Shown here: one piece after another, positions 1-17,300 of the stretch
Position numbering within the stretch: position 1 is the stretch's first letter
How the letters are laid out: every line of letters begins with the position of its first letter
Assembly: GCA_023137195.1 (NCBI GenBank)
Contig: JAGLPV010000004.1
Coordinates: 1-17,300, forward strand
Source: Candidatus Aenigmatarchaeota archaeon
GTDB taxonomy: Archaea > EX4484-52
Reading direction: 5' to 3'
Length of the DNA: 17,300 bases
Made by a program: the position numbers and the translations under genes
Notes under the pieces: generated by a model
What the model was told of the DNA's origin: nothing
Seen by the model: the letters and a program-made list of their open reading frames with translations, nothing else
The model's database searches: none

Positions 1-1
1 A

Positions 2-1003
2 GGAAGAAAACAAGATGAAGACTATGCTAAACTGGATTCAGACGGAATTATTTCTCCGGGTCAGCACGTTGACACAGAAGATATATTGGTAGCAAAATCA
101 TCGCCACTTAGATTTGTGGATACTGAAAAAGAAATACATATGGGTATCAGCAACATGCATGATAATTCAGTAAAAACTTCAAGAAATGAACCGGGCACAA
201 TAGAACAGGTTCTTATTACATCAACAGAAGAAGGAGAAGCTCTTGTAAAAGTAGGTGTGAGAGAACACAAAATACCCGAAATAGGAGACAAATTCGCAAC
301 CAGGCACGGGCAGAAAAGTGTCGTAGGTATGATTGTTCCTGAAGAAGATATGCCAACCACGGCAGACGGCAGGACACCAGACATTATATTTAATCCACAC
401 GCAATCCCATCACGTATGACTGTAGGTCAGATAATGGAAATTATTGCCGGCAAATACGGCGCATTGATTGGAGAAAAAATAGATGCAACTGTATTCGGAA
501 GCAAAAAAGAAAAAATAGTAAGCGGACTCGAAAAATTAGGATTCAATAATAACGGGAAAGAAACACTCTATGATGGAAGAACGGGTAAAAAAATAGAATC
601 TGAAATTCTCATGGGCGTCTGCTTTTACCAGCGACTTTACCAGTTGTCATCTCATAAATTATATTCAAGATCAAAAGGACCGGTCACTCTACTTACAAGA
701 CAACCAACAGAAGGAAGAAGTAAGGGCGGCGGTCTAAGACTGGGAGAAATGGAAAAAGACTGTATACTTGCACACGGAGCGGCAATCTCTCTACACGAGA
801 GATTCAGTTGCGACCACCAGAAAGTAAAAATATGTAATAAATGCGGAGTGATTGCAATAATGGACACTGAGAAAGGAAAATATCACTGCCCTATCTGCAT
901 GAAAAACGACATAGGTGAAATAAAAATACCGTCTGCTTTCAAATTATTGATAGATGAAATGATTTCAATGATGATATACCCTAAAATAATAATAAATGAT
1001 TAA
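2..1003 (+). CDS. rpoB: DNA-directed RNA polymerase subunit B (Rpo2), C-terminal part, 5'-truncated by the window edge
   Basis: The frame is open from position 2 (GRKQDEDYAKLDSDGIISPG...), so the track start at 86 is internal. Motifs: GDKFATRHGQK, EDMP..DG.TPDIIFNPHAIPSRMTVGQ, LTRQPTEGRSKGGGLRLGEME and a C-terminal CxxC...CxxC zinc ribbon. Confidence 0.97.
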   Translation, partial: GRKQDEDYAKLDSDGIISPGQHVDTEDILVAKSSPLRFVDTEKEIHMGISNMHDNSVKTSRNEPGTIEQVLITSTEEGEALVKVGVREHKIPEIGDKFATRHGQKSVVGMIVPEEDMPTTADGRTPDIIFNPHAIPSRMTVGQIMEIIAGKYGALIGEKIDATVFGSKKEKIVSGLEKLGFNNNGKETLYDGRTGKKIESEILMGVCFYQRLYQLSSHKLYSRSKGPVTLLTRQPTEGRSKGGGLRLGEMEKDCILAHGAAISLHERFSCDHQKVKICNKCGVIAIMDTEKGKYHCPICMKNDIGEIKIPSAFKLLIDEMISMMIYPKIIIND

Positions 1004-1015
1004 TCAGGTAATAAT

Positions 1016-4000
1016 ATGAGTAAAATAAAAAGAATTGATTTTGGTTTAATAGCTCCTTCGGTTGTAAGAAAACTTGCAGTCATAGAAATTACATCTCCGG
1101 ACGTATATGATACAGACGCACTTCCTGTAGAAGGAGGGATAATGGATTTGCGACTGGGTGTTGTAGATCCCGGCTCAAGATGCAAAACATGCTTTGGCAA
1201 GTTGGATACCTGCACAGGACACTTCGGATATATTACTCTTGCAAAACCCATAATAAATGTACTCTACATCAACTATATCAAAAAAATATTACAGGCAACA
1301 TGCCATAAATGCGGCGCATTGTTACTGGGCGAAAATGAAATCAAAAAAATGGAGGATGATGAAACTGAAAATTTCATAAGCATCAAATTAACAACTACAA
1401 AAAAATGCCCTAAATGCGATGAAGAGGTAGAAAAACTAAAACTCGAAAAACCACATACCTTTAAATACGGGAAAAAAATACTAAATCCTTTGGAAGTAAA
1501 AGAACACATGGATCGAATCAGTGACGAAGATTTAGAAAAAGTAGGATTTAAAGGAGGCAGACCCGAATGGATGGTTCTCACTCTTTTCTTAATACCACCC
1601 ATTTCTTCAAGACCCTCTATCATGCTTGAAAACGGGGACCGAAGTGAAGACGATCTTACTCACAAACTCGTGGACATCATAAGAATCAACGAGAGATTGA
1701 AAGAAAATGTAAATATTGAAACACCATCCTTTATTATTGATGACCTATGGGAACTCCTGCAATACCACGTAACAACTTATTTTAACAATGAACTAACAAA
1801 CATTCCTCCGGCAAGACACAAATCCGGAAGACTACTGAAGACATTATCTTCGCGTCTTAAAACAAAAGAAGGAAGATTCAGACTAAACCTTACAGGAAAA
1901 AGAGTAAATTATTCCTCTCGTGGTGTAATTTCACCGGATCCACAGATACATGTCAATGAAGTAGGCGTACCAATAAGTGTCGCCCAGGAATTGACTATCC
2001 CTGAAGTAGTAAATGAAAAGAACAAGGAATTTCTTTCCGGTCTTATAAAAAATACAGGCAATTATCCTACTGCTCAATATGTCGTCAGCGATGGATTAAG
2101 AAAAAAAGTAATGGAAAGCAACGCAGAATATATCTCAGATGAATTAAAAAATGGCGATATTGTAGAGAGGCAAATGATTGACGGAGATATTGTATTATTT
2201 AACAGGCAACCATCCCTTCACAGGATGTCCATAATGGCACACTATGCAAAAGTCATGCCGGGGCATACATTCAGACTAAATTTATGCGTATGTAAGCCAT
2301 ACAACGCTGACTTTGACGGTGATGAAATGAATCTTCACCTGATGCAGACCGCAGAAGCAAGAGCAGAAGCAAAAAAGCTTATGCTCGTGGAAGCAAACAT
2401 GCGTTCCCCTAAAGCCGGAGCCCCGGTTATGGGATGCGACCAGGACTACATCTCCGGAGCATATATGCTAACCAGAAATAACACAATTCTCACAAAAAAA
2501 GAAACAGCAAAAATATTAGCAGCAGCAGATATTTACATGGAGTTAGACAAAGAAAAATACACAGGTAAAGAACTATTCAGCTTTCTTATCCCGGACAACA
2601 TAGATATAACCTATGAAACAGACATCTGTTCAATCTGTGAATTAAACGAAAAATCAGACTGCAAACACGACTACAATGTCATCATAAAAAAAGGTAAATT
2701 ATTACAGGGTGTAATTGAAAGCAAGGGTCTGGCATCCTTTAAAGGAAGACTACTAAACCAGATAGATATGATGTGCGGACACAAAGCAGCTGTTGATTTT
2801 TTATATGATATTACAAGAGTCATTGTAGAATTTATGCTTCTTAAAGGATTTTCTATATCAATAGACGATGTCTCTATCTCAAAACAGGCAAAACTCAAAA
2901 TAAACAACGAACTAAACGCCATGGGAGAAAAAGCAGAGGAATACATAGATAGTTACCAAAAAGGAAAAATCAAGGGAAAATATGGGCTTAAACCAAAAGA
3001 ACTCCTTGAAGGAAAAGTCATAAAAGAAATAAGTGATACAACTTCAAAGACACAAAAAATCATAGAAGCAGATGCTGGAGAAAACGGAGCAACAATAATG
3101 GCAAGAACCGGAGCAAGAGGAAGCCTACAGAATCTTATATATATGAGTGCTTTCCTTGGTCAGGAACTGGTCCGGGGGAAAAGAATATTCCGTGGATATG
3201 AAGACAGAACTCTATCTTTCTTTGAAAAAAATGATTTAGGATTAACAGCTCATGGCTTTGACAGAAACTCACTAAGTGATGGAATATCCTACACAAACTT
3301 CTTCTTTGAAATTATGAAAGGAAGAGAAGGACTGATGGACTCTTCCCTAAAAACAAAAGTCAGTGGATACATGCAAAGGCGTCTTGTCAATGCACTTCAG
3401 GATTTTATTGTAGATAAAGACAAAAAAGTAGTTGGAGCAGACGGTGAAATTGTACAATTCCTTGCCGGCGAAGATGGAATAGACCCATCAAAAAGTAATT
3501 TTGGAAAACCTTTCGAAAACAGGAAAGATTCTGAATATGAAGCAGGCGAAGCAATAGGAATTGTATCATCACAGTCCATCTCAGAACCGGCAACACAGAC
3601 AACACTAAGATCATACCATGCTGAAGGTCGACTGACACTTACAACAACAAAAGGACTCCCAAGAATTCTGGAACTAATTGACGGAAGAAAAGAGCCGACA
3701 ACACCTGCCATGAACATCTATTTGACAAAAGAATTCGACAATGAAAAAGGAGCATACTTGATTGCATCAAAAATAAAGGAAATCAAGCTCATTGATGTAT
3801 TAAAAGAAGACACAATCAATGCTTTTGACTTAAACGTTGAAATAAAAATAGATAAAAAAATAGCAGACTCGTTCTCCATAAAAACACCGGATATCCTGGA
3901 AGCTATAAAAAAAGCAGACAAAACAATAATTTGCGTTGCAAAAGAGGATAAAATCATAGTGTCCTTCAAAAAAGAAAATAAAACAATACAAGACCTCCAT

Positions 4001-4519
4001 GAATTGAGAGTAAAATTAAGAGACTCTTATGTTGGCGGAATTAAATCCATAAAACAGGTAATTATTGAAGAAGAAGAAAAGACATGGATAATAAAAACAC
4101 TTGGATCCAACTTAAGAAAAGTCCTGAAAATAAAAGGAGTTGATCCCACAAGAACTATTTCAAACAATATTTTCGAAGTTGAAAGGGTTCTCGGAATAGA
4201 GGCAGCAAGACAGAGCATCATCAACGAAATCTGGTCAACTATGAAAGAACAGGGTGTGCAGACAAACATAAGGCACCTTCTCCTTGTAGCTGATTGTATG
4301 ACGGCAACAGGCACAATAAAATCAATTGGAAGAGCAGGAATATCTGGCGCAAAAAATTCTGTTTTGGCGCGTGCAAACTTTGAAGAAACTGTAAAGAACC
4401 TAACAAAAGCAAGTGTATGTGGAGAAGCAGAAAAGTTCGGAGGAATTGTTGAAAACCTAATTGTCGGCTCCGTTGTACCTGTGGGAACTGCTAAAGTCAA
4501 ATTAAAGATGAAAGAATAA
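1016..4519 (+). CDS. rpoA: DNA-directed RNA polymerase largest subunit, fused A'+A'' (Rpo1), 1167 aa
   Basis: Clamp Zn sites (CKTC..C..H, CHKC..CPKC), RSEDDLTHKL, GKRVN, FNRQPSLHRMS, catalytic NADFDGD (2303-2323) and bridge helix GREGL..SGYMQRRL. A''-type motifs follow in the same frame (GEAIG..QSISEP.TQ, GLPR, LGIEAAR, RHLLLVAD, LARANFEET). SD-like AGGT at 1006-1009. Confidence 0.97.
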   Translation: MSKIKRIDFGLIAPSVVRKLAVIEITSPDVYDTDALPVEGGIMDLRLGVVDPGSRCKTCFGKLDTCTGHFGYITLAKPIINVLYINYIKKILQATCHKCGALLLGENEIKKMEDDETENFISIKLTTTKKCPKCDEEVEKLKLEKPHTFKYGKKILNPLEVKEHMDRISDEDLEKVGFKGGRPEWMVLTLFLIPPISSRPSIMLENGDRSEDDLTHKLVDIIRINERLKENVNIETPSFIIDDLWELLQYHVTTYFNNELTNIPPARHKSGRLLKTLSSRLKTKEGRFRLNLTGKRVNYSSRGVISPDPQIHVNEVGVPISVAQELTIPEVVNEKNKEFLSGLIKNTGNYPTAQYVVSDGLRKKVMESNAEYISDELKNGDIVERQMIDGDIVLFNRQPSLHRMSIMAHYAKVMPGHTFRLNLCVCKPYNADFDGDEMNLHLMQTAEARAEAKKLMLVEANMRSPKAGAPVMGCDQDYISGAYMLTRNNTILTKKETAKILAAADIYMELDKEKYTGKELFSFLIPDNIDITYETDICSICELNEKSDCKHDYNVIIKKGKLLQGVIESKGLASFKGRLLNQIDMMCGHKAAVDFLYDITRVIVEFMLLKGFSISIDDVSISKQAKLKINNELNAMGEKAEEYIDSYQKGKIKGKYGLKPKELLEGKVIKEISDTTSKTQKIIEADAGENGATIMARTGARGSLQNLIYMSAFLGQELVRGKRIFRGYEDRTLSFFEKNDLGLTAHGFDRNSLSDGISYTNFFFEIMKGREGLMDSSLKTKVSGYMQRRLVNALQDFIVDKDKKVVGADGEIVQFLAGEDGIDPSKSNFGKPFENRKDSEYEAGEAIGIVSSQSISEPATQTTLRSYHAEGRLTLTTTKGLPRILELIDGRKEPTTPAMNIYLTKEFDNEKGAYLIASKIKEIKLIDVLKEDTINAFDLNVEIKIDKKIADSFSIKTPDILEAIKKADKTIICVAKEDKIIVSFKKENKTIQDLHELRVKLRDSYVGGIKSIKQVIIEEEEKTWIIKTLGSNLRKVLKIKGVDPTRTISNNIFEVERVLGIEAARQSIINEIWSTMKEQGVQTNIRHLLLVADCMTATGTIKSIGRAGISGAKNSVLARANFEETVKNLTKASVCGEAEKFGGIVENLIVGSVVPVGTAKVKLKMKE

Positions 4520-4584
4520 TTAATTTGACCATCAACCAAAATCTTCCTATATGTTCTGTGGAAATACAAGAAGAGAGATATTCT

Positions 4585-4592
4585 TTTTTAAA
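4585..4592 (+). promoter_or_regulatory. Putative TATA box for the DP1 gene
   Basis: TTTTTAAA ends about 20 nt before ATG 4613, the spacing expected for a leaderless archaeal transcript. Confidence 0.45.
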
Positions 4593-4612
4593 CTTGCATC
4601 TCATATCAAATA

Positions 4613-6103
4613 ATGACCAGGGATAAAATCTCAAATGCAAAAGAATTTCTATCTGCCCTCATCAGCAAAGGACTTCTAATTGAACCGGCAACTTTTGAGT
4701 CAATAAAAGAAATGTTCCAAAACAAAGCCAATATTGCCTGCCTTGTCGCAGAATCAATATGTAACGATTCATCAGACGAAATCAACTCTAATACAATAAA
4801 AGAAAAAATCAAATTTTTCGAGGACCAGGAAAAAACAAAACAAAAAGTCACAATAAAAAAAACAATCAAAAAAACAAGAAAAGACTACGATGCACAGGTA
4901 AAAATCAGGAAAATCAAAGAAAACACAGCTAAAAAAAATACAACTTTATTTTGCGACTACTTTCTAAGCAGGTATGAAAAAATAAAAAAAATCCTGGTGA
5001 GGCATCTTGATCTGACAAATCTCGTCTCTATCAACAACCTAAATTCCTCGAAAAGAAACGGGGATATCTCAATCATAGCCATAGTAAAAGACAAGATAGA
5101 AGCAAAAACAGGAACAATTCTGCTGGATGTAGAAGACAAGACCGGAGCTGTTCGCGTATTCGTAAAAGAAGCGGACTTGTGTCAAAACATAATCAATGAT
5201 GAAGTGATTGGCATACAGGGAAACCATTTCAGTGGCGGAATCATTGCAAAAAAAATTATTTTTCCGGAAATCCCTTTCCCACAGGAAGTAAACAAAATAG
5301 AAGAACCACTAAAAGCTGTTTTCATAAGCGACGTGCACCTGGGCAGTAAAGAATACTTAAAACTCGTCGAAGAAAAATTTCTCAAATGGATTAACAAAGA
5401 CAGCCAGACACAAGATGTAAAATACCTCTTTATTTCAGGCGACAACGTAGATGGAGTAGGCATCTACCCAAGCCAGAAAGAAGACCTGGAAATAAATGAT
5501 ATTTACGAACAATATGCTGAATTTGAAAGATTCATTGAAAAAATACCCGAAGAAATAGAAATCATGATTTGCCCGGGAAACCACGATGCAGTTATGCAGT
5601 TTGAACCGCAGTTTGCCCTGGATAAAGTCTATGTCCCAAATCTAGTGAACCGCTCAAATGTCCATCTCGTAAAAAACCCGGAATACATCTACCTCCACAA
5701 CAACGATGACAGCAATGGTCTGAAGGTTTTAATGTATCACGGCTATAGCTTCACAAGTATAATTGACGTAATCCCGGAATTAAGAAAACACGGTCTTTCC
5801 CACCCCGAATACGTCATGACAGAGGTCCTAAGAAAAAGGCATGTCGCTCCATTGTACGGAGCAAGCATCGTAGCACCTGCAACAGAAGATTACCTCGTAA
5901 TGGATGAAATCCCTGACATTTTCCAGACAGGTGATTTGCACAGCCATTGCCTCAAAAATTACAAAGGAACAACTCTTATTTCATCAAGCACATTCCAGGG
6001 ACAGACTAGTTTCATGGACAGGGTGGGTCACATAGCAAACCCGGGAAAAGTGTCTATGGTTGATTTACATACAAGAGAGTGTTTTATCAAGAATTTTATG
6101 TAA
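4613..6103 (+). CDS. polB: DNA polymerase D small subunit DP1 (OB fold + calcineurin-like 3'-5' exonuclease)
   Basis: OB region (LDVEDKTG..DEVIGI.G) and phosphoesterase motifs SDVHLGS, GDNVDGVGIYPSQ, PGNHDA..EPQ, YHG, RHVAPLYG, PDIFQTGDLH, STFQGQTSF. Confidence 0.95.
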   Translation: MTRDKISNAKEFLSALISKGLLIEPATFESIKEMFQNKANIACLVAESICNDSSDEINSNTIKEKIKFFEDQEKTKQKVTIKKTIKKTRKDYDAQVKIRKIKENTAKKNTTLFCDYFLSRYEKIKKILVRHLDLTNLVSINNLNSSKRNGDISIIAIVKDKIEAKTGTILLDVEDKTGAVRVFVKEADLCQNIINDEVIGIQGNHFSGGIIAKKIIFPEIPFPQEVNKIEEPLKAVFISDVHLGSKEYLKLVEEKFLKWINKDSQTQDVKYLFISGDNVDGVGIYPSQKEDLEINDIYEQYAEFERFIEKIPEEIEIMICPGNHDAVMQFEPQFALDKVYVPNLVNRSNVHLVKNPEYIYLHNNDDSNGLKVLMYHGYSFTSIIDVIPELRKHGLSHPEYVMTEVLRKRHVAPLYGASIVAPATEDYLVMDEIPDIFQTGDLHSHCLKNYKGTTLISSSTFQGQTSFMDRVGHIANPGKVSMVDLHTRECFIKNFM

Positions 6104-6126
6104 AATAATTTTCATAATAGACGATA

Positions 6127-6164
6127 GAAAAATTTATATAGATAATACCAATAAATAGTATTAT
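6127..6164 (+). promoter_or_regulatory. BRE/TATA promoter with a downstream palindromic operator candidate for the abiE operon
   Basis: GAAAAA-TTTATATA (6127-6140), then ATAATAC-N9-GTATTAT (6142-6164), which abuts ATG 6165. Confidence 0.6.
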
Positions 6165-6944
6165 ATGGAAAAAAATATATACTTATCAAAAAAAGAACAG
6201 GAAGTTTTCAATGTCTTAAGAGACCTAAAAAACCCTGTTATTGAACACGACCAGCTAAAAGATGTTTTCCAACATAATAAATATTTAAACAAAACAATCA
6301 GTAGTCTTATAAGAAAAAAATATTTTTTAAAAATAAAAAAAGGACTGTATTTGATACAAAAAGAGCCGTCAGATAAAATAAACATAGATGATATATATGC
6401 TATTGCACTGAGAATTAAAAAAGGATATTTTGCTTTTTCAACAGCCCTGCGATTGCATAATCTTATGGAATACGAACCATTTACTATCTACATTGCAACA
6501 AGCCATAAGCCGGAAGAAATCAAAATAAGCAATTACCTGATAAAAGCAGTTAACTACACCAAAATAGGCAATATAACAACCATCAATAAATATCCTGTTT
6601 CAACAAAAGAAAAGACCTTTTTTGACTGCTTCAATAAGCCACAATACTGCGGTGGCTTTTACCAGATAACTAATGCTCTCTACAGCACCAGAATAAACTG
6701 GAAAATCCTTTTAACTTATTTCAAAAAACATGCCTCAAATGTCCTATGCCAGAAAACAGGCTATATTCTGGAGCAGATGAAAGAAAAAACAAATTATGAA
6801 ATTCCCAATTATGTAATCAATTATTTGAAAACAAGAATAAAAAATAAGGTCTATCTAATCGCAGGACAAAAAGGAGGCAAATATAATAAAGAATGGAAAT
6901 TAACGGATAATGACCGAAATTTCTTAAAATGGTATTATGGCTGA
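6165..6944 (+). CDS. abiEi: AbiEi-family type IV antitoxin / transcriptional regulator
   Basis: N-terminal winged-HTH-like segment (ISSLIRKKYFLKIKKGLY), GYFAFSTALRLHNL, and STKEKTFFDC..KPQYCGG. It overlaps the downstream nucleotidyltransferase gene by 8 nt (ATGGCTGA). Confidence 0.85.
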   Translation: MEKNIYLSKKEQEVFNVLRDLKNPVIEHDQLKDVFQHNKYLNKTISSLIRKKYFLKIKKGLYLIQKEPSDKINIDDIYAIALRIKKGYFAFSTALRLHNLMEYEPFTIYIATSHKPEEIKISNYLIKAVNYTKIGNITTINKYPVSTKEKTFFDCFNKPQYCGGFYQITNALYSTRINWKILLTYFKKHASNVLCQKTGYILEQMKEKTNYEIPNYVINYLKTRIKNKVYLIAGQKGGKYNKEWKLTDNDRNFLKWYYG

Positions 6945-7740
6945 TTTAAAATATTTACGATATAAATCCCTGGAAACCGGCTTTGGCTTAAATTACATAT
7001 CTAAAGAAGAAAAACTGTCTTTACTTCTATACGATTTATCGACCCTCTTAACTGACAAATTCATAATAAAAGGCGGAACTGCCCTAAATCGCGCTTATCT
7101 AATAAATAAAGGACTCTCCAGATTTTCTGAAGACATAGACATAGATTATATTGCAGAAAAAAAATTTGATGAAAAAATAAAAGATACAGCCAAAATCATG
7201 GATAAAATCAAATCATTTGATGTCGCAAAATCAAGACTTATGAATAAAACGCTCCGGTACGATTGCTATTACATCAATGAATTAAACCATAAAGACAGGA
7301 TTCAGGTTGAGTTCTATTTAGCCCACGATAAAATTATCTGTCAGCAACAGCCAGGGAAAAAAACATTGAAATCCTCTTTTATAGAATCGCAACTTGCGTA
7401 CTTAAGAGTTTATTCCTTCGAGGATCTATTCGCAAGGAAAATAATTGCCTGTTTAAATAGGATGGAAGGAAAAGACATTTACGACTTGTTTTACTGTTTC
7501 GAAGTTAATTTCGACAAAAAGACATTAAAAAAAGCAATTGTCAAAATAGCAGAATTTTATGGATTGCCCGGCAATGCAAAAGAAATAATAATAAAACTAA
7601 TCCAAAAATTAAATTCTGTTGAAAACCAGTATTATATCGGAACTTCAACAAATCATTTTATCCCGCGAAATTTAAGACCAGACTGGAAAATAATAATTAT
7701 TTCATTAGCAGACAAGCTAAAGTTAAATTTATTATTGTAA
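6937..7740 (+). CDS. abiEii: AbiEii-family (DUF1814) nucleotidyltransferase toxin
   Basis: Signature KGGTAL...RFSEDIDI, then EDLFARKI.A..NR..GKDIYDL. Translationally coupled to the upstream antitoxin gene. Confidence 0.9.
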   Translation: MADLKYLRYKSLETGFGLNYISKEEKLSLLLYDLSTLLTDKFIIKGGTALNRAYLINKGLSRFSEDIDIDYIAEKKFDEKIKDTAKIMDKIKSFDVAKSRLMNKTLRYDCYYINELNHKDRIQVEFYLAHDKIICQQQPGKKTLKSSFIESQLAYLRVYSFEDLFARKIIACLNRMEGKDIYDLFYCFEVNFDKKTLKKAIVKIAEFYGLPGNAKEIIIKLIQKLNSVENQYYIGTSTNHFIPRNLRPDWKIIIISLADKLKLNLLL

Positions 7741-7776
7741 ATAAACCGTAACATTTCAATAGAAAGCTTATTTACA

Positions 7777-7810
7777 ACATGAAAATTTTTTCGTGTTTTT
7801 CGTCAAAAAA
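7777..7810. terminator. Possible terminator region between the convergent abiEii and rps15 genes
   Basis: Short imperfect hairpin ACATGAAA/TTTCGTGT (7777-7796) followed by a T-run, with an A-run (T-run on the minus strand) at 7805-7811. Confidence 0.3.
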
Positions 7811-7840
7811 ATTTGCTTGTAATAAAAATATAAAACCAGT

Positions 7841-8293
7841 CTATTCAATCAATATCCCGACCTTGTCCTGCTTATATTTCCAGTCAGCAGGCAATACTTT
7901 TTTCCTCTTATAGTATTTTACCAGTCTCCTTATCTTAGATTCTGTTATTGCAAGACCTCTTTTTGCATATTTATCGTGCTTGTTTGCAATAATATGCTTT
8001 TTAATCAAAACAACTTTTTTAAGCAAAGTATACATATCTTCAGGCAAATCGCCCTCAAGTTTATTTTCTTTCAAAATCTTGCTTATTTTTTTGCCGCAAA
8101 TATCCCTTACGCATGGAATTCCATGAACATCACGGAGAACAAGACCTATTTTAGCACTAGCATTTCCTTCTTTTTTTAATTTAATGATTATTCGCTCAAC
8201 AGAACTTTTCTTTTCATCAACCCATTCTGCCTTTTTTATATTTGTCCGTTTGCTGCCTGCAACTCCTCTTTTCCTTGAATACATCCGTGCCAT
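7841..8293 (-). CDS. rps15: 30S ribosomal protein uS15 (archaeal S15P/S13e type)
   Basis: MARMYSRKRG.AGSKR, KIGLVLRD.HGIP, LPEDMY.L.KK, DK.AKRGL..TESKIRRLVKYYKR..VLPADWKY. Confidence 0.97.
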   Translation of the reverse strand: MARMYSRKRGVAGSKRTNIKKAEWVDEKKSSVERIIIKLKKEGNASAKIGLVLRDVHGIPCVRDICGKKISKILKENKLEGDLPEDMYTLLKKVVLIKKHIIANKHDKYAKRGLAITESKIRRLVKYYKRKKVLPADWKYKQDKVGILIE

Positions 8294-8333
8294 ATCTTGT
8301 TTATCGTGTCTTAGGTATTATAATAGGATTAGT

Positions 8334-8373
8334 TTTATAAATATATTCTAAAATCAAACGACCAATTTATATA
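8334..8373. promoter_or_regulatory. Divergent promoter region for rps15 and corA
   Basis: Palindromic TTTATAAA at 8334-8341 could serve rps15 on the minus strand. TTTATATA at 8366-8373 lies about 20 nt before ATG 8394. Confidence 0.45.
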
Positions 8374-8393
8374 TGTTTACTTACAATAATATT

Positions 8394-9368
8394 ATGTTTG
8401 ACATATTTCTAATCCAGTTAGAAAATAACAAAAAAAATACTGTCGAGAAAAAAACATTTGAACAAATAATCCTGTCAAACAAAAAATCACAATACAACAA
8501 AACATTCTACTGGATCAACTGCGTCAATTCAACAGAGGAAGAATTAACTCAACTCTCACGCCTCACCGGGATAAAAACAGAACATTTCCAGGATGTCCTG
8601 CTTGACACAGAAAGATCCACAATAACCAAGGGAAAATGGCTTTTTATCAGCTATCGCGCAATAAACAAGGATTTAACGAACACCACCCCCCTAGGCATTT
8701 TTTCATACAAAAACTTATTAATAACCATTGAAAAAGAGCCGATAAAACCAATAAACAAATACAAGTATCTCCTGGCTGAAAGAAAAAGGACAGCCGCCTT
8801 TGCAGAAGGCAAAATCTCTTTTATATACCATCTATTTGACAATATTAATGACGGATTCAGGGAAAAAATAATCAGCGAACTAAATAAAACCAAATCAATG
8901 GAAGAAAACAGTGCTACGTTGTCCTCTACAAAAAAAATAGAAAACATATATACCTCTATTGTAAATCACATTTACCTCCAGAATGCCCTTTCTTCAAATT
9001 TAGAGGTTCTAACATCCATTGTAAAAGGCAAACTGCTTGAATTCCACACATTCAGGGATGAATTTGTAGAAATCTATGAAGATGTAAAAGAACTGCTCTA
9101 CATGGAAAAAATGCAAAAAGACGTAACAAACACCCTCTTCAATCTCCACTCCTCTTTTGCAACATATGAACTAAATGAAACAATGAAAAAAATCACAGGA
9201 TGGGGCTTCATCATCATGCTTCCGACACTTATTGCAAGTATTTACGGCATGAATTTCCGGACCATCCCATTCTCCCAGGGTCCCTATGACTTTACTATTA
9301 TGTGCGCAGGAATGTTCCTCCTGATGGCGGCAATATTCCTGTACTTAAGAAAAATCAAATGGTTATAA
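8394..9368 (+). CDS. corA: CorA-family Mg2+/divalent cation transporter
   Basis: C-terminal LNETMKKIT...LPTLIASIYGMNF (GMN signature), a second TM helix and a basic KWL tail. The ORF can start at 8373, but ATG 8394 fits the TATA spacing better. Confidence 0.9.
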   Translation: MFDIFLIQLENNKKNTVEKKTFEQIILSNKKSQYNKTFYWINCVNSTEEELTQLSRLTGIKTEHFQDVLLDTERSTITKGKWLFISYRAINKDLTNTTPLGIFSYKNLLITIEKEPIKPINKYKYLLAERKRTAAFAEGKISFIYHLFDNINDGFREKIISELNKTKSMEENSATLSSTKKIENIYTSIVNHIYLQNALSSNLEVLTSIVKGKLLEFHTFRDEFVEIYEDVKELLYMEKMQKDVTNTLFNLHSSFATYELNETMKKITGWGFIIMLPTLIASIYGMNFRTIPFSQGPYDFTIMCAGMFLLMAAIFLYLRKIKWL

Positions 9369-9369
9369 A

Positions 9370-10155
9370 ATGAGGAAAGCAAAAAGCAAACTTCTCGCCC
9401 TACTAATATCACTCCTTCTTATCAGTTCCGGCTTTTTCATCTATTCTACCTATCTTTGTGACCCGACAATTGATACCCCTCCAATAAATCTACTATTTGC
9501 AAAAGACAACATCACAATAGTTAAAGATATTATCCAAAGATACAACCGGGATCACACCTACAGTAAAAAAGACCTTTTTGTATGTAGTGACATGGCAACA
9601 GATGTATGGAACATGATAAAATCAAAAGGCTTTGATGCAAAAATAAAAATAGGAAACATAGACAATGAAACAACAAACAAAAAATTAAATTTCACCCAAT
9701 ACAACCATGCCTGGGTAATGGCAGAAATAGACAATGAATGGTATGCCCTTGAAACAACAGCCGGATTTATTGCCGAAGAAAACAAACACCCCCTCTACTA
9801 CAGGAAAACAATTGAATTCAACAATGCCCTGGAGTTTAAGGACTACCTCGACTCCATAAAACAATACAACACCCTAATAATCGTCAACAACAACGTCTCA
9901 TACCTATGTAACGCACTCTACACAAACTACACAATCCAATACGACCAGCACAATGCACTAATAGATACCTGGAATAAAAAATACTCCGGAACCCCTTCGT
10001 CAACAGAATCTGATTTATTCAGCAAAAGAATAGAAGACAAAAAAACAACATTAGATGAAAAGGAAAATACATACAATGGCTGTATTGTAGCAGTAAAAGA
10101 AATTCAAAAACTAACAACTACAACCTATAAAAAAATTGAAAGTAAAAATAAATAA
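9370..10155 (+). CDS. Membrane-anchored/secreted transglutaminase-like (papain-fold) protein with a C-terminal helical region
   Basis: Basic N-terminus plus hydrophobic helix (LLALLISLLLISSGFFIY). FVCSDMA (C72), NHAWV (H113) and WYALETT (E128) match the C..HAW..W..D/E pattern of transglutaminase-like domains. Confidence 0.7.
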   Translation: MRKAKSKLLALLISLLLISSGFFIYSTYLCDPTIDTPPINLLFAKDNITIVKDIIQRYNRDHTYSKKDLFVCSDMATDVWNMIKSKGFDAKIKIGNIDNETTNKKLNFTQYNHAWVMAEIDNEWYALETTAGFIAEENKHPLYYRKTIEFNNALEFKDYLDSIKQYNTLIIVNNNVSYLCNALYTNYTIQYDQHNALIDTWNKKYSGTPSSTESDLFSKRIEDKKTTLDEKENTYNGCIVAVKEIQKLTTTTYKKIESKNK

Positions 10156-10160
10156 AATTC

Positions 10161-10433
10161 TTAAGATATCACTTTCTTCAAGCTCTCTACTACTCCTTCA
10201 ACAACATCTTTGTCTACGGGAAGAGATAATGTTTTTCCTTTTCTGAATCTCTTTTGACCTTCCATTGTGTATCCTCTTGAAAGAGAGATGAACTCATTCT
10301 CACCATCGCTTGTTATTGCTTTTTTTCTTGCTATTTCTATGAAGTCTCCTTTGTCCCCGAAAGTAACTTCCTGGGCTTTTATTACTTCAAATCTTACTTC
10401 GTCTCGTCTGTTTTCATTTTGTGCTTGTTCCAT
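10161..10433 (-). CDS. Small hypothetical protein, probable PC4/whirly-like single-stranded nucleic acid-binding fold
   Basis: SD AGGTG upstream. The beta-strand pattern FIEIARKK..NEFISLSRGY..KRFRKGKTLSLP is followed by one C-terminal helix, as in the PC4 fold. The fold call is by eye. Confidence 0.55.
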   Translation of the reverse strand: MEQAQNENRRDEVRFEVIKAQEVTFGDKGDFIEIARKKAITSDGENEFISLSRGYTMEGQKRFRKGKTLSLPVDKDVVEGVVESLKKVIS

Positions 10434-10454
10434 TTTTACACCTTTTATTGTTTT

Positions 10455-10658
10455 TTATTTTATTATAGAATGCATGAACTTATTTTTCTTCGCTTTTTCA
10501 AGAGTCCACGCATCGCCTATAAGCATATCCGGAATATTGTCGCCCAAAACAGGATAAGCCAGACTACTGCTTTTACATAATAAAAACATGTCTTTATTCT
10601 CTAATCCACTAAGACATTTGGGACAACGCAATACATCTAATAGTTTTTTGTTTATCAT
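10455..10658 (-). CDS. trm112: Trm112-family methyltransferase activator
   Basis: LLDVLRCPKC...L..LLCKSS..AYPV..NIPDML..DA is the Trm112 pattern. The fourth Zn-ligand Cys is replaced by Ser. Confidence 0.85.
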   Translation of the reverse strand: MINKKLLDVLRCPKCLSGLENKDMFLLCKSSSLAYPVLGDNIPDMLIGDAWTLEKAKKNKFMHSIIK

Positions 10659-10664
10659 ATAAAA

Positions 10665-11213
10665 TTAAGAATTTATTTCTCTTTTAAGAGTCTCCAGTTC
10701 CTGGCGTAAATCTCCCAGTTCATCAGAGAAAGAAAGATCCTCTGTATCTTCTCCAGCAGAAATATCTTCCATATATTCGTAATCAGTACCTGTCAAAGTA
10801 TGTCCTTCAACAGTCATCCTTTCCTCAATATCATTAATCTTGACAGACAACTTGTTCAATTCATCTTCAAGACGAATGATTGCTTTTGTCCTAATTTTTT
10901 CTGCCCTTGAAAGAAGCGCTATAGTTGCCGCTATTGCCTTGATATCTCTCTTACCGTCAATCAAATCATTTGAAATCGACAGATGACCATCTATTTTTAC
11001 AAAAGTATGAGTATCCTTTTTTCCCCCTCCTGTCATTTTCCTGGTCTCTTCAATGCCTGCCTCAGGCATCCTCTCTCTTTTTACAGGAGTCAGCGGAGGG
11101 TATTTGTGCTCCCTTACTGTCGGATAATTATTCTTTACTTCATTTTCTTTTTCCTTATCATCACTTGCGACAAGATTTTTCAGCATATTTATATCTTCTT
11201 CATCCATTGACAT
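10665..11213 (-). CDS. Hypothetical protein with a central coiled coil and acidic low-complexity flanks
   Basis: 182-aa ORF filling the gap, 6 nt upstream of trm112. Heptad-like segments RLEDELNKLSVKINDIEERM and ELGDLRQELETLKREIN. Confidence 0.7.
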   Translation of the reverse strand: MSMDEEDINMLKNLVASDDKEKENEVKNNYPTVREHKYPPLTPVKRERMPEAGIEETRKMTGGGKKDTHTFVKIDGHLSISNDLIDGKRDIKAIAATIALLSRAEKIRTKAIIRLEDELNKLSVKINDIEERMTVEGHTLTGTDYEYMEDISAGEDTEDLSFSDELGDLRQELETLKREINS

Positions 11214-11262
11214 AATATTATTTAATAACCAAATTATTTAAATGTTTCTAAATTACATAACT

Positions 11263-11505
11263 ATGGCAAAAAAAATTATTGTATACAGCACAAATGCATG
11301 TCCTTACTGCACTTACGCAAAAGACTATCTAAAGGAAAAAAAACAGGATTTTGAAGCAATTGACGTCTCTGCCGACAAGGAAAAAGCACAGGAAATGATA
11401 GACAAATCCGGTCAGATGGGCGTTCCTGTAATAGACATAGACGGCAATATCATCGTCGGTTTTGACAAGGATAAAATAAATCAATATCTGGAATCTGACG
11501 AATAA
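11263..11505 (+). CDS. Glutaredoxin / NrdH-redoxin (YruB-like)
   Basis: VYSTNACPYC redox motif, SGQMGVPVIDIDG.IIVGFD. ATG 11263 is preferred to 11242 because the latter overlaps the TATA-like box. Confidence 0.92.
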   Translation: MAKKIIVYSTNACPYCTYAKDYLKEKKQDFEAIDVSADKEKAQEMIDKSGQMGVPVIDIDGNIIVGFDKDKINQYLESDE

Positions 11506-11660
11506 AAGCCACCAGACAAAAACAACCCTCCTTACATCCGAAAACTGCATTTATGTTCTCAAATTACTCTCTTTTGGTTGCACAGCTACATTAGGTCAAA
11601 AGAGTCTTTGACTCCAAAAACTGTTTTAAAGATTAATTCTATATATTTAAAGAGTAAATT

Positions 11661-12026
11661 ATGAAAATTGACGCTGTTGTATCAACAGAAGATGCAAAAG
11701 AAATATACGACTATCTAATTGCCGAAGCAGGACATTCTAAAAAAGAACGTAGAATATTGAATAGTGTCGACGAAAAAATCAAATTCATAAAACGAAAATT
11801 TAAATATGAAAACAAGCCTTATGGAGATTCTATAGCAAAAAACTTAATTCCTAAAAAATACATAAAAGCATACAAAATATCAAATTTATACAGGGCAGAA
11901 CTGCCTCATGCACATAGAATGATGTATTCTATAAAAACAAACGAAAAAAAGGAAAGAATACTTATTATCATCTCCATCCTAGATCATAAATCCTATGACG
12001 TTATTTTTGGTTATTATAAAAAATAA
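11661..12026 (+). CDS. RelE/ParE-superfamily-like basic protein (putative ribonuclease toxin)
   Basis: 121 aa and lysine-rich. The pattern PYGD.I...IPK.Y...NLYRAELP..HRMMYSI...IIISILDHKSYD.IFGY resembles the RelE C-terminal sheet (R..Y....i..i..H..Y). Confidence 0.6.
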   Translation: MKIDAVVSTEDAKEIYDYLIAEAGHSKKERRILNSVDEKIKFIKRKFKYENKPYGDSIAKNLIPKKYIKAYKISNLYRAELPHAHRMMYSIKTNEKKERILIIISILDHKSYDVIFGYYKK

Positions 12027-12057
12027 TGTTAAATCATATCTCTCTTTTGAAAATCAT

Positions 12058-12849
12058 TTATAAGTAATATTTTTTAAACAAAACAGCATCTCCCAACGGG
12101 TCTGGTGCCTCGCAAATAAGCGTCAAATCACAATCTTTCTCTTTTAACACCTCTGCCAACAGTTTGTAGTCCGGTTGACTTGATTCTATCGGCAGATGCT
12201 TCTTTTCATTTCCGTCTTTATACAAAATACCACTATAATGACAATGCATTCTATCAAAACCATATTTCCCTGACAATTCAATAATCTCTGCAAAATCCTC
12301 CTTTGTCCTCAAACAACCATCACCTCGTGCATGGATGTGAGCAAAATCAACAACAGGTGTCGTCCCTTTAACCAAAGAACACAATTTTAAAACCTCTTCC
12401 AAATCCCCGAACTGGCTTTGCTTTCCCATGACCTCCACGCCAAAAAGAGTCTTTGACTTTGTCCTGAACAAAATTTCTTCTATTTCTCTTTTAACATTCT
12501 CAAAAGTCTCTTGCTTTGATTTTTGCGAATAATAAGCCACATGCACCACACATACGGTAGCACCCATACAATCGCAGATTTCAAGACACTTCAGAAGAAT
12601 TGCCTTGCTTTTCTCAATTACAGCAGGATTTTGCGAATTAAGATTAATAAAATAAGGCGCATGCACAGAAACAGAAATATCATATTTTTTTGCCTCTACA
12701 GAAAATTCCATTGCTTGTTTGCCATCCATATAAATTGAACGCACAAACTCTATCTCTATCGCACCAAGACCCTGCTCTGCTAAGAATTTCGGCGCATCGT
12801 TGGTAGATTTGCACCCATAAGGGATTCCTGCGGTTCCTATTTTTAACAT
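12058..12849 (-). CDS. nfo: Endonuclease IV (AP endonuclease family 2, TIM barrel)
   Basis: Metal-ligand motifs SVHAPYFINLNS, VVH, GVEVMGK.SQFG.LEE, VDFAHIHAR, HCHYSGI, EKKHLP, ICEAP, typical of archaeal Nfo. Confidence 0.9.
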   Translation of the reverse strand: MLKIGTAGIPYGCKSTNDAPKFLAEQGLGAIEIEFVRSIYMDGKQAMEFSVEAKKYDISVSVHAPYFINLNSQNPAVIEKSKAILLKCLEICDCMGATVCVVHVAYYSQKSKQETFENVKREIEEILFRTKSKTLFGVEVMGKQSQFGDLEEVLKLCSLVKGTTPVVDFAHIHARGDGCLRTKEDFAEIIELSGKYGFDRMHCHYSGILYKDGNEKKHLPIESSQPDYKLLAEVLKEKDCDLTLICEAPDPLGDAVLFKKYYL

Positions 12850-12879
12850 ACACTAAAAAGAAAAGAAAATATTTAATGA

Positions 12880-12911
12880 TTAAAAGAAAAAATTAAGAAA
12901 AAGAAAAAGAA
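12880..12911 (-). terminator. T-tract terminator candidate after dnaK
   Basis: The minus strand reads TTCTTTTTCTTTTTCTTAATTTTTTCTTTT immediately after the dnaK stop, consistent with archaeal oligo-U termination. Confidence 0.55.
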
Positions 12912-14840
12912 TCACTTCTTCTCCTTCTTCTCATCTTCCTTAACTTCCCCGTCAACAACTTTCTCTTCTCCTCCTTTCTTGTCTCCGGACTGCTCAGACG
13001 TCTTTGCCTGTTGTTCTGCTTGTGCCTTCTGCTGTGCCTGCTGGTACATCTTCATTGTCACTTCCTGAACAGCAGTGGAAAGCTCTTCTTTCTTTGCCTT
13101 TATATCATCTGCATTATTGTCTGCTATAGCTTTCTTCAGTGCCTCTTTCTTCTCTTCAATCTCTTTTTTCTTGTCATCTGTCATGATGTCTTTCGGCGCT
13201 TCCTTGATTGTCTTTTCAACAGTATTCACAAGCATCTCTGCCTCGTTTTTTTCCATTATCTCATCGGATTTCTTTTTATCCTCTTCCTCGTGAACTTTTG
13301 CATCATCAACCATCTTTTTAATCTCATCATCTGAAAGACCGCTTGTCTTCTTGATAGTAATACTCTGCTCTTTCCCGGTACCTAAATCTTTCGCACTAAC
13401 CTGTAAAATACCGTTCGAGTCAATGTCAAACTTTACCTCAATCTGTGGTATTCCTCTTTGTGATGGAGGTATCCCGTCAAGAATAAATCTTCCAAGACTT
13501 GTATTGTCTGCTGCCATTTTCCTCTCTCCCTGGAGTACATTAATCTCCACACTCGGCTGGTTGTCCGCAGCAGTAGAAAATATCTGTGTCTTCTTTGAAG
13601 GAATCGTAGTATTTCTCTCAATCAATGGAGTCGCGATACTCCCCAAGGTCTCAATACTCAATGTAAGAGGAGTGACGTCCAGAAGAAGAACATCCTTTAC
13701 ATCTCCGCCAAGTATACCTCCCTGGATTGCCGCACCAAGTGCCACAGCCTCATCAGGATTGATGTTTTTTGACGGTTCTTTTTCAAATATATCTTTTGCA
13801 ACTTTCACAACAGCAGGAACTCTTGTCGAACCTCCCACCAGAAGAACCTTGTCAATATCTGAAGGCTTTAATTTTGCATCATCAAGAGCTTTATGGCATG
13901 GCTTTCTTGCCCTATCAAGTAAATCATCAATCAATTCCTCGAATTTTGCTCTTGTCAAAGTCATATCAATATGCTTTGGACCACTGGCATCTGCTGTAAT
14001 AAACGGAAGGTTTATTGATGTCTGGACAGTTGTGGAAAGCTCTATCTTTGCCTTTTCAGCCGCGTCCTTCACTCTCTGTATAACAGAAGCATCTTTTGAA
14101 ATATCCATACCATTCTGCTTCTTAAATTCATCAAAAATATAATCCATTATTTTCTGGTCAAAATCATCTCCACCAAGATGATTATCTCCGGCAGTAGATT
14201 TTACTTCAAAAACCCCTTCACCCAATTCTAATACCGTAACATCAAATGTTCCTCCACCAAAATCAAACACAAGAACAGTTTTGTTGTCTGTCTTATCAAT
14301 CCCGTACGCAAGAGCAGATGCCGTAGGCTCATTAATTATCCTCTTCACCTCAAGACCTGCAATCTTTCCTGCATCCTTAGTAGCATTTCTCTGTGCATCA
14401 TCAAAATATGCCGGCACAGTAATTACCGCCTCGGTAACCTTAGTTCCAAGATAACTCTCTGCATCTTCCTTCATCTTCTGCAAAATCATTGCGGATATCT
14501 CCTGTGGACTGTATTCTTTTCCTCCTGCTTCAAACGCACAATCCCCGTTCTTCGCAGCCTTAACTTTAAACGGCACACTTTTTATCTCCTTCTGTACAAG
14601 AGAATCATTAAATTTCCTCCCAATATACCTCTTGGTAGAATAAATAGTATTCTCCGGGTTTGTAATTGCCTGCCTTTTTGCCAATACCCCAACAAGACGC
14701 TCTCCTGTCTTTGTAAATCCAACCATAGAAGGTGTTGTTCTTGTACCTTCTTTATTTGGAATAATAACTGCTTTTCCTCCCTCGATAACCGAAACAGCAC
14801 TAAATGTTGTTCCTAAATCAATTCCTATTATTTTTCCCAT
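12912..14840 (-). CDS. dnaK: Molecular chaperone DnaK (Hsp70)
   Basis: [62 protein letters not shown] 14840 is preceded by SD AGGTGA; the track's GTG start at 14849 lies inside that SD. Confidence 0.98.
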
Positions 14841-14863
14841 ATTAATCACCTATTTAATCACTC

Positions 14864-14917
14864 ATTCACATACTATATGTGAATAGATATCTAATTTATA
14901 CACATTAATTATATAAA
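14864..14917 (-). promoter_or_regulatory. dnaK promoter: TATA box plus a 21-bp palindrome
   Basis: Minus-strand TTTATATA at 14917-14910. Perfect inverted repeat ATTCACATA-CTA-TATGTGAAT at 14864-14884. Confidence 0.6.
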
Positions 14918-14966
14918 TGTATTGATTCAACTAAAAAAATTCCATTCATTGAAAGCTTTTCTTACA

Positions 14967-15128
14967 CCCACAAATAATCTCGTGAAAATCTGTGTAATCT
15001 GTGGCTCAAATCCACAAGATTCTTGCGATTAACACAAGATTAAGAAACAAAAAAAATCTCGTGAAAATCTGTGTTAATCTCGTGGATTAAACCAGTTCCT
15101 GTGAGTTCCGTGAGTTCTGTGGATTAAA
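14967..15128. repeat. Composite intergenic repeat: triplets of 9-11 nt GTG-ending units in direct and inverted orientation
   Basis: Exact 20-bp direct repeat AATCTCGTGAAAATCTGTGT at 14976-14995 and 15055-15074. Inverted block AATCCACAAGATT..GATTAACACAAGATT at 15009-15041. Variant triplet AGTTCCTGTG-AGTTCCGTG-AGTTCTGTG-GATTAAA at 15094-15128. Confidence 0.85.
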
Positions 15129-15134
15129 ATAGAA

Positions 15135-15148
15135 GAAAACTATATAAC
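15135..15148 (+). promoter_or_regulatory. BRE/TATA candidate for the DUF58 gene
   Basis: GAAAAC-TATATAAC ends 20 nt before ATG 15169. Confidence 0.5.
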
Positions 15149-15168
15149 TTATTTATCCCTATAATTTA

Positions 15169-16065
15169 ATGAAACCCGACCCTGCCTTAGTCCCCAGCAA
15201 ACAATTCCTGATTCTTGAAGCTCAAAAAAAAGTCCAGCAATTGACCGAAGTATTCCGATTCATCCTGAAGTTCAAAAGAATATCAAGCAGCGGGATGGAA
15301 TTTTATGGACTAAGAAAATACTCAGAAAGCGACGACGCATCAAAAATAGACTGGAAAACAAGCGTCAGGATGGGAACCCTATACGTAAAACAATACGAAG
15401 AAGAACTTGACCTCGGAACCTTTTTCATCGTCGATGCCTCGGATTCCATGATGTTTGGAACAAAAAATATGCTTAAATCTAATTACGCAGGAATCGTAAC
15501 CGCCACCCTTGCCTTTGCCGGAACAGAATCAAGAACTGCCGTTGGTCTGTCCATCTTCAACGACAAGCAGCTTGTACTCCCTATGGAAAAGGGCGCCCTC
15601 CAGTATTATAAGATGGTTGATGCCCTCTCGAACCCAAATAATTACTTCGGACCATGCCGCATGGCAAAAGCAATAAATAATGCATTCGCCTCTTTATCTG
15701 ATAGGACTCTTCTTATTATCGTTTCTGACTTCATTAATATAGAAGGAAATTGGATTAGTGCAATAAAACAGGCAAGCACAAAATTTGAAGCAGTCATAGG
15801 TATTATGGTAAGAGACCCTATTGACAAAAAACTCCCGAAAGGAATAGGAACTATGAGAGTAAGCGACATTTTTTCATCACAGGTAACAGAAGTAAACGCC
15901 TCAAAAATAGCAGACAAATACGAAGAAGAAGTCAGGAAGCAGGAAGAGCACATAGCAAATGAATTCAAGAATCTCGGGGCTGGTTTCATAAATGTTGTTA
16001 CAACCGAGGATTACATACCTCCTTTGATGAAGTTCTTTAATCTATGGGCCTCAAGAAGAACATAA
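15169..16065 (+). CDS. DUF58 domain protein with vWA-like MIDAS motif
   Basis: GMEFYGLRKY...DDASKIDWK.S.R...LYVKQYEEE, IVDASDSMMFG (DxSxS), IIVSDF, VRDP. Confidence 0.92.
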   Translation: MKPDPALVPSKQFLILEAQKKVQQLTEVFRFILKFKRISSSGMEFYGLRKYSESDDASKIDWKTSVRMGTLYVKQYEEELDLGTFFIVDASDSMMFGTKNMLKSNYAGIVTATLAFAGTESRTAVGLSIFNDKQLVLPMEKGALQYYKMVDALSNPNNYFGPCRMAKAINNAFASLSDRTLLIIVSDFINIEGNWISAIKQASTKFEAVIGIMVRDPIDKKLPKGIGTMRVSDIFSSQVTEVNASKIADKYEEEVRKQEEHIANEFKNLGAGFINVVTTEDYIPPLMKFFNLWASRRT

Positions 16066-16077
16066 ACAAGGAAAATT

Positions 16078-17244: not shown

Positions 17245-17300
17245 TTCGTAAGTTAATTTTTTAAAAAATTGAGAGCAATTTTCCAATTGATTCTAATTCA

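Follow-up and report, generated by a model that had tools for sequence, protein, structure and literature searches.

Rpo1 of an Aenigmatarchaeota archaeon carries a phylum-wide variant of the RNA polymerase bridge helix and genus-specific changes of the F-loop and subunit gene

The N-terminal hinge of the archaeal bridge helix (BH-HN) has been dissected in the RNA polymerase (RNAP) of Methanocaldococcus jannaschii, where G809 and G810, essentially invariant in archaea and in RNA polymerase II (Pol II), do not tolerate replacement: any residue other than Gly severely lowers activity (Weinzierl, 2010; PMC2988716). Substitutions at D816, Q817, V819, Q823 and S824, together with some at R820 and A822, raise the activity of the same enzyme, probably via contacts with the trigger loop (Tan et al., 2008; PMC2776397). 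The closest precedent for natural change in these elements is the diverged RNAP of Nanoarchaeum equitans, along with its Woese- and Pacearchaeota relatives (Nottebaum and Weinzierl, 2021; PMC8204694). As described in that study, the N. equitans enzyme is active in vitro, has a specific activity and temperature and pH optima comparable to those of the M. jannaschii enzyme, shows a fluoride requirement and carries an additional Pro (neA'' P47) close to the trigger-loop edge; fused A'-A'' genes occur in some of its relatives, two pacearchaeal cases having been published. Here we describe Rpo1, the largest RNAP subunit, as encoded in a 17,300-nt stretch from a Candidatus Aenigmatarchaeota archaeon (contig JAGLPV010000004.1 of assembly GCA_023137195.1, positions 1 to 17,300), hereafter called the window. 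We consider it probable that this protein departs from the usual form in two layers: an old, compensated variant of the moving parts of the active centre that is common to the whole phylum, and a young layer, specific to the genus, that consists of F-loop changes and a gene fusion.

The region examined comprises residues 696-796 of Rpo1 (Table 1). A preliminary description of this DNA, made without database searches, had quoted a peptide from nt 3100-3403, and this peptide is found verbatim in three pieces, all inside that interval (residues 706-721, nt 3131-3178; residues 731-736, nt 3206-3223; residues 745-790, nt 3248-3385). The consensus against which it had been set is likewise upheld by residue-by-residue alignment, since the five best solved archaeal Rpo1N chains show His, Gly-Gly, Asp-Thr-Ala-Val and Gln-Gln. 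Each departure named in that description holds against these chains, namely Glu765 for His, Lys768 for the first of two Gly, Ser776-Ser777-Leu778 for Thr-Ala-Val, Phe735 for His and Glu717 for the second funnel Gln. The bridge helix aligns to the solved chains without gaps. M. jannaschii numbering, obtained as window residue +41, was taken from the residue names in PMC2988716 and PMC2776397, and residues 767-769 were mapped to mjA' M808-G810 by the names in the former; the canonical BH-HN hinge, with two Gly (mjA' G809 and G810) after the hinge Met, is not present, Lys768 standing at G809. For yeast Rpb1 the offset is +51, from the solved-chain alignments, and for the trigger loop +217, set by motif register and not by alignment. 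The comparison with published M. jannaschii mutagenesis that had been proposed places the lost hinge Gly at a site intolerant of replacement (PMC2988716).

The phylum sample consisted of every genome of the window's GTDB phylum (42 genomes, 8 families, 13 genera), in 40 of which the region was found and read. Glu765 and Lys768 are present in all 40, and the Ser-Ser-Leu turn occurs throughout, except in genus g12, which has Val-Ala-Leu. Funnel Glu717 is found in 37/37 phylum genomes outside the window's genus, and Gln occupies this position in 44/45 genomes outside DPANN. In the trigger loop, Thr or Ile replaces Met at 862 and Tyr replaces Phe at 867 in all 40 genomes, every one of which also has the catalytic His868. 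A remodelling peculiar to one gene or organism does not hold, as the set of bridge-helix, funnel and trigger-loop changes extends to 40/40 phylum genomes.

Beyond the phylum, 80 named archaeal genomes were surveyed, the helix being readable in 77 because three loci stop before it. The G809 position is Gly in 51 of the 77, Thr in 10, Asn in eight, Ala in four and Lys in four, and each of the four Lys genomes corresponds to a member of the window's phylum; from the 73 readable named genomes outside it, the combined changes of bridge helix, funnel and trigger loop are absent. Because Lys is found in phylum members and in none of the other 73, the Lys variant is a phylum marker, and a clean one for annotation. 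The preliminary description had named a wide occurrence in archaea as the outcome that would count against it, and this is half of what was found: the variants are widespread, but inside one phylum only. Loss of the first hinge Gly is a broader phenomenon. Gly is kept in 40/44 non-DPANN genomes and lost in 26/77 named genomes, mostly DPANN-labelled ones, so that it has given way to at least four different residues (Lys, Asn, Thr and Ala) in DPANN lineages.

Two further samples were drawn from protein databases. The best 120 matches were aligned with the window protein and the five sequences of the window's clade set aside, which left 116 nearest clusters, a sample biased by its ranking according to likeness to the query. 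Among these, Lys768 occurs in 46, Glu765 in 52, Ser777 in 56 and Leu778 in 63, and position 717 is evenly divided (57 Glu, 57 Gln). Among 150 listed representatives at 50% identity, the Lys variant occurs in two, since the whole group collapses into very few clusters; the first-Gly position varies among Ala, Ser, Thr and Asn in many unnamed long and short proteins.

The replacements are clustered in the bridge helix. Groups were set by taxonomy, not by the feature itself: 37 phylum genomes outside the window's genus were compared with 45 named non-DPANN genomes, the latter remaining from the 80 named loci after 31 with DPANN-like or uninformative labels and four phylum members had been left out. 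Conserved positions were those with at least 90% identity in the 45 non-DPANN genomes, of which there are 312 over residues 247-1161, and 17 of these are fixed to another residue in the phylum. The 36-residue bridge helix holds eight of the 17 (8/26 conserved positions vs 9/286 elsewhere, p=1e-5), and the wider region to which the preliminary description had pointed holds 10 (10/59 vs 7/253 elsewhere, Fisher p=0.0002), a test informative solely on clustering along the protein. The remaining phylum-fixed sites comprise two at the funnel end, two in the trigger loop under the strict criterion, Gln680 before the funnel end and four near the C-terminus. The window protein has seven of the eight bridge-helix replacements (765, 768, 774, 776, 777, 778 and 779). 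A remodelled bridge helix that has lost the first Gly of its N-terminal hinge is thereby borne out, and the remodelling goes beyond background divergence.

The variant helix is also constrained. Over residues 696-800 (105 codons), comparison with two congeners gives 35 synonymous codon differences and 8 and 14 non-synonymous ones; within the bridge helix, the comparison with both congeners gives 10 synonymous differences and no non-synonymous one. Synonymous differences thus dominate, which indicates that the Rpo1 gene is functional and that the variant helix is strongly constrained, as expected of a helix under purifying selection.

Partner elements of the helix have changed with it. The trigger-loop tip (residues 869-872) is at least 88% invariant in the 45 non-DPANN genomes, and it is altered and variable in the phylum. 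Of the 37 phylum genomes outside the genus, none has an aromatic residue at 869; at 870, 22 have Glu, 13 Ala and two Val or Asp; at 871, 27 have Gly, eight Ala and two Ser; and at 872, 27 have Arg or Lys. A covariation check against the trigger loop had been proposed, and the bridge-helix change does accompany changes there. An obligatory pairing of Lys768 with Glu870 was considered and rejected, because 870 is Ala in 13/37 while Lys768 is invariant in the phylum.

In Rpo2, 8 to 10 of the 16 Link-domain positions differ from the solved archaeal chains, the count varying with the chain compared: the domain's own lysine is lost, a new arginine appears three residues earlier, and the invariant arginine is retained. 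This variant is present in 30/30 phylum loci read by tblastn extraction. Fork loop 3, in the B'' part of the window genome, departs from the solved archaeal chains at five positions, with Arg where those chains have Val, and the metal-B Glu-Asp pair is retained in the B' fragment, aligned to the same pair in the solved chains. The Link domain joins the nucleoside triphosphate site to the bridge helix at its N-terminus via the F-loop, and these three elements (F-loop, bridge-helix N-terminus and Link domain) move as one body (PMC3270539). The trigger-loop residues F1086 and V1089 are close to the funnel helix, and M1079 occupies a hydrophobic pocket by which the loop is kept open (PMC5127505). 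Additionally, G819, G820 and E822 are listed as contacts of alpha-amanitin together with trigger-loop residues 1081-1088 (PMC11333700). As this literature places the changed residues around one pocket, it is that pocket that the phylum's changes strike.

The older of the two proposed layers would therefore comprise, in the bridge helix and in M. jannaschii numbering, H806E, G809K, V815M, Q/T817S, A818S, V819L and R820K; in the funnel, Gln-to-Glu717; in the trigger loop, Met-to-Thr/Ile862, Phe-to-Tyr867, loss of the aromatic residue at 869, mostly Glu at 870 and Arg or Lys at 872; and, in Rpo2, the Link domain. These parts would pack around one another and would have changed as one compensated set, and the helix without its first hinge Gly would still support catalysis, probably with altered dynamics of the hinge and of trigger-loop closing. 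The younger layer would consist of an F-loop cap with four to six replaced residues and of an A'/A'' fusion with a short junction deletion. The preliminary description had suggested a co-evolved change in elongation dynamics. Of this, the co-evolution agrees with the joint change of the trigger loop, but the set belongs to the phylum and is not specific to the gene, and any shift in elongation kinetics, like the physical compensation itself, is one that we infer from sequence. The Lys variant does not amount to a new mechanism, nor do these data demonstrate altered enzyme behaviour. A phylum with a Lys fixed at the hinge is a natural experiment in re-balancing the catalytic cycle, with matched changes in the trigger-loop tip, the funnel and the Link domain.

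A more specific proposal, which we regard as distinctly unlikely, is that the pocket between funnel and bridge helix that takes the closed trigger loop has been rebuilt from a tight steric fit for small residues into an electrostatic fit. Lys768, Glu717 and Glu870/Arg872 may then pair on loop closure, and the Link-domain lysine may have been relocated. The variability of trigger-loop tip positions that are otherwise near-immutable fits this proposal. If it were true, the phylum would hold a natural and complete suppressor set for a hinge-Gly mutation that is crippling in the model enzyme, and the two-hinge model of the nucleotide addition cycle would become directly testable by transplanting the set.

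Several points weigh against the two-layered reading as a whole. The clustering test treats sites as independent, and the co-occurrence of the changes is one event in the stem lineage, not 40 independent ones, because the members of the phylum share one ancestor. Strict pairwise coupling between Lys768 and position 870 fails. That Lys768, Glu717, the trigger-loop tip and the Link domain touch one another is inferred from the yeast literature, and M. jannaschii positions were assigned by the residue names that papers give, not from that sequence itself.

Among the alternatives, compensated drift without functional meaning survives best, although we think it rather unlikely. A fast-evolving symbiont lineage with small populations would have fixed a slightly harmful hinge change once and patched it nearby, and the enzyme would now work much like others. 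Genomes with DPANN labels have replaced the first hinge Gly in various ways (of 77 read, 10 with Thr, eight with Asn, four with Ala and four with Lys), a pattern that suggests weaker constraint on this site in such lineages; the window's genus replaces conserved residues all over the protein (25/275); and the N. equitans enzyme keeps activity and optima comparable to those of the M. jannaschii enzyme despite other radical changes (PMC8204694). However, the replacements at issue are concentrated in one 36-residue helix and are frozen across 13 genera under purifying selection, and the fluoride requirement of the N. equitans RNAP indicates that divergent active sites are not necessarily silent (PMC8204694). 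Drift and altered kinetics are, moreover, not mutually exclusive.

The genus-specific layer bears on a second alternative, according to which the remodelling is peculiar to this gene or organism and reflects a recent co-evolved change in elongation dynamics. The F-loop cap is indeed distinctive: Val or Ile occupies position 749 in 116/116 nearest clusters, Pro 759 in 107/116 and Glu 761 in 103/116, and the 37 phylum genomes outside the genus retain the usual cap residues. Of 275 positions conserved among the 116 nearest clusters, 25 are replaced in the five-sequence clade to which the window protein belongs. These are scattered over the protein, with four of the 12 conserved positions in the F-loop cap affected (735, 749, 751 and 761) vs 21/263 elsewhere (p=0.016, for a stretch chosen post hoc). 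The fused gene with its shortened junction, likewise confined to this genus, would also speak for a local event. Yet the genus has added no change of its own to the bridge helix (0/19 conserved positions), its rate over the whole region is average (4/47 vs 21/228, p=1.0), the F-loop p-value comes from a stretch picked after the fact, and the named bridge-helix, funnel and trigger-loop changes are those found in 40/40 phylum genomes. For the bridge helix this alternative is already largely refuted by the phylum survey, and overall we hold it to be very unlikely. Nor is Phe735 unique to the clade, as genus g7 also has Phe and genus g3 has Gln. Of the departures described, only the F-loop changes Asp749, Asn751, Tyr759 and Asn761 and the compact gene fusion are confined to the genus. 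Outside the region considered here, the genus also replaces the near-invariant residues 269, 347, 352 and 443 (window nt ~1820-2345), among them Arg-to-Lys269 (Arg in 116/116 nearest clusters) and Pro-to-Met443, just past the metal-A motif (Pro in 113/116).

From the end of the bridge helix to the trigger loop, the gene measures 213 nt in the window's genus (g1), as against mostly 312-353 nt in the split relatives that were read that far. A fused Rpo1 with a full-length linker (333-339 nt) is found in four of eight genomes of genus g2, the other four being split, so that the A'-A'' fusion arose at least twice in the phylum, in g1 with a deletion and in g2 with a full-length linker. In one genome of genus g3 (G009) and in genus g4, the A' stop and the A'' start lie in one frame with a single stop codon between them, which means that fusion can arise easily. 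The arrangement of subunit genes varies to an unusual degree across the phylum (loci L005-L031). An unsplit RpoB is suggested for genus g13, whose RpoB match falls within an open frame of 1098 aa. In another genome of the phylum (G018, contig C89; L162 530..4810), Rpo2 B' (Rpb2 domains 4-7) and Rpo1 A', with the N-terminal part of Rpb1 domains 1-5, share a single 1426-aa frame, and A'' is a separate downstream open reading frame (ORF); this would be a putative archaeal B'-A' fusion, seen in a single metagenome-assembled genome. In a further relative (G012), two contigs, C26 and C42, both encode the bridge-helix region, which may reflect a duplicated contig end or a mixture of strains.

A third alternative holds that the secondary channel has adapted to a different cleavage factor, or has become resistant to an inhibitor that binds in the channel. 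In Pol II, the changed residues of the bridge helix (yeast G819 and H816) and of the trigger loop (1081-1088) are among the alpha-amanitin contacts given in a text that cites a docking study (PMC11333700). The funnel Gln-Gln pair also counts among alpha-amanitin contacts, and the changed residues consequently border a known ligand pocket. On the other side, a TFIIS-type zinc ribbon was found in 39/42 phylum genomes, the TFS of the window genome (107 aa) shows an ordinary zinc ribbon and an intact Asp-Glu pair in its catalytic hairpin, and no second TFS-like paralogue was detected in that genome (one match). To our knowledge, moreover, there is no natural archaeal inhibitor of the secondary-channel pocket. 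We therefore judge such an adaptation to be very improbable indeed; the preliminary suggestion of altered TFS or inhibitor binding finds no support, and loss of TFS was rejected as a driver on the same two observations, the zinc ribbon in 39/42 genomes and the acidic pair in the window genome.

A pseudogene, an assembly error or contamination has a practically negligible chance of explaining the variant: the assembly is in 57 contigs and 85% complete, and the adjoining rpoB is cut by the contig end, but the gene has 1167 open codons, five Rpb1 domains, the metal-A motif and zinc-binding cysteines, a congener genome and independent database entries contain the same fused gene at 83-92% identity, and the differences from congeners are strongly dominated by synonymous ones.

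The window is an archaeal information-processing locus with a G+C content of ~36%, and the names on related database proteins and loci place the organism among DPANN archaea. Rpo1 matches PF04997, PF00623, PF04983, PF05000 and PF04998 in this order over residues 2-1116, far above the cut-offs, and with Rpb1 domains 1-5 belongs to the archaeal/eukaryotic-type largest subunits (Rpo1/Rpb1). It is the sole Rpo1 match in its own genome (57 contigs, 84.8% complete). Solved A' chains match residues 3-834 and solved A'' chains residues 836-1166; because both align to one protein, Rpo1 is a fused A'+A'' subunit, and the canonical split A'/A'' organisation is absent. RpoB is divided into B'' and B': the missing 5' part of rpoB is located in the same genome, at the end of its contig C14 (G000:C14:50455-50814), where the two frames lie at 3..1100 and 1102..1866 of locus L033, and B' continues in the window at 2..1003. 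The other genes of the window encode an AbiEii toxin, ribosomal protein S15, CorA, a glutaredoxin, an AP endonuclease, DnaK, a DUF58 protein and alanine dehydrogenase. The AbiEii nucleotidyltransferase toxin gene (6937..7740, + strand) overlaps by 8 nt an upstream ORF of 259 aa without a Pfam match, which may encode the antitoxin; the pair (6165..7740, + strand) sits between the genes for the PolD small subunit and ribosomal protein S15.

Table 1. Coordinates in the window of the Rpo1 elements discussed and of the flanking genes
Feature	Position (nt)	Strand	Basis or remark
rpoB' (Rpo2 B'), 3' part	2..1003	+	Pfam Rpb2 domains 6 (profile 129-373) and 7; gene interrupted by contig start
Fused Rpo1 (A'+A''), 1167 aa	1016..4519	+	ORF and translation; Rpb1 domains 1-5
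Metal-A aspartate motif, residues 430-439, canonical	2303..2332	+	Invariant in alignment A1
Funnel Gly715-Gln716-Glu717 (second Gln to Glu)	3158..3166	+	
Residues 731-736, Phe735 for usual His	3206..3223	+	His in 109/116 nearest clusters
F-loop cap, residues 745-761; genus changes Asp749, Asn751, Leu753, Tyr759, Asn761	3248..3298	+	
Bridge helix, residues 762-797, phylum-wide variant form	3299..3406	+	
N-terminal hinge (BH-HN), residues 767-769; Lys768 replaces first Gly, Gly769 kept	3314..3322	+	
A'/A'' fusion junction, ~residues 827-840, ~33-45 residues shorter than in split relatives	3494..3535	+	
Trigger loop, residues 856-888, variant (Thr862, Tyr867, Ala869, Glu870, Arg872)	3581..3679	+	37 phylum vs 45 non-DPANN genomes
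PolD small subunit gene	4613..6103		

Compared with the solved split Rpo1N/Rpo1C chains (PDB 4qiw, 8cro, 2pmz, 2waq and 7ok0), the window protein shares domain order and catalytic motifs (E-values of 1e-236 to 4e-220 for the A' part and ~1e-74 to 1e-72 for the A'' part). It differs in being one polypeptide, with ~13-20 residues missing from the end of A' and ~50-60 from the start of A'', and most of its seven phylum-fixed bridge-helix changes are visible against these chains. Fusion as such has counterparts in other archaea, with single-chain genes in two loci of Bathyarchaeia and one of Altiarchaeota among the 80 named genomes, as well as in many database proteins of ~1150-1260 aa.

With the M. 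jannaschii hinge mutants (Tan et al., 2008, PMC2776397; Weinzierl, 2010, PMC2988716), the resemblance lies in where the natural changes fall, since they strike mapped functional residues: G809 of the BH-HN hinge, and the group D816/Q817/V819/R820/A822/Q823, substitutions in which change activity and often raise it. The difference is that the natural Lys at G809 is fixed in a phylum, together with about a dozen other changes.

The N. equitans type comes nearest. Like the window's phylum, it belongs to DPANN and has a bridge helix, a trigger loop and a fork loop 3 with radical substitutions that are themselves conserved (PMC8204694), and it too has lost the first hinge Gly, in its case to Thr (10/77 named genomes, mostly labelled Woesearchaeota or Nanoarchaeia). 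Fork loop 3 of the window genome has the Val/Ile-to-Arg change listed for that type (PMC8204694). A search for literature linking bridge-helix variation to DPANN groups, subscription journals lying outside it, returned nothing relevant besides this study, and no account of the Lys variant was found within the same limits; the text consulted of the N. equitans paper, its figure sequences apart, makes no mention of it (PMC8204694). The two types nonetheless part in their chemistry. Where the window has Lys at the G809 position, the other type has Thr; where the other type has its hallmark Pro, two residues past the R820 position (PMC8204694), the window has Lys781. No Pro occurs at 781 in any of the 121 aligned sequences, and the Thr-form genomes carry the Pro described for N. 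equitans. The trigger-loop tip, changed in the window, is near-canonical in the Thr-type genomes, and both Rpo2 metal-B acidic residues are kept in the window genome, whereas one has become Gln in the other type (PMC8204694). The phylum described here extends the one published case, that of N. equitans, to a second and chemically different solution.

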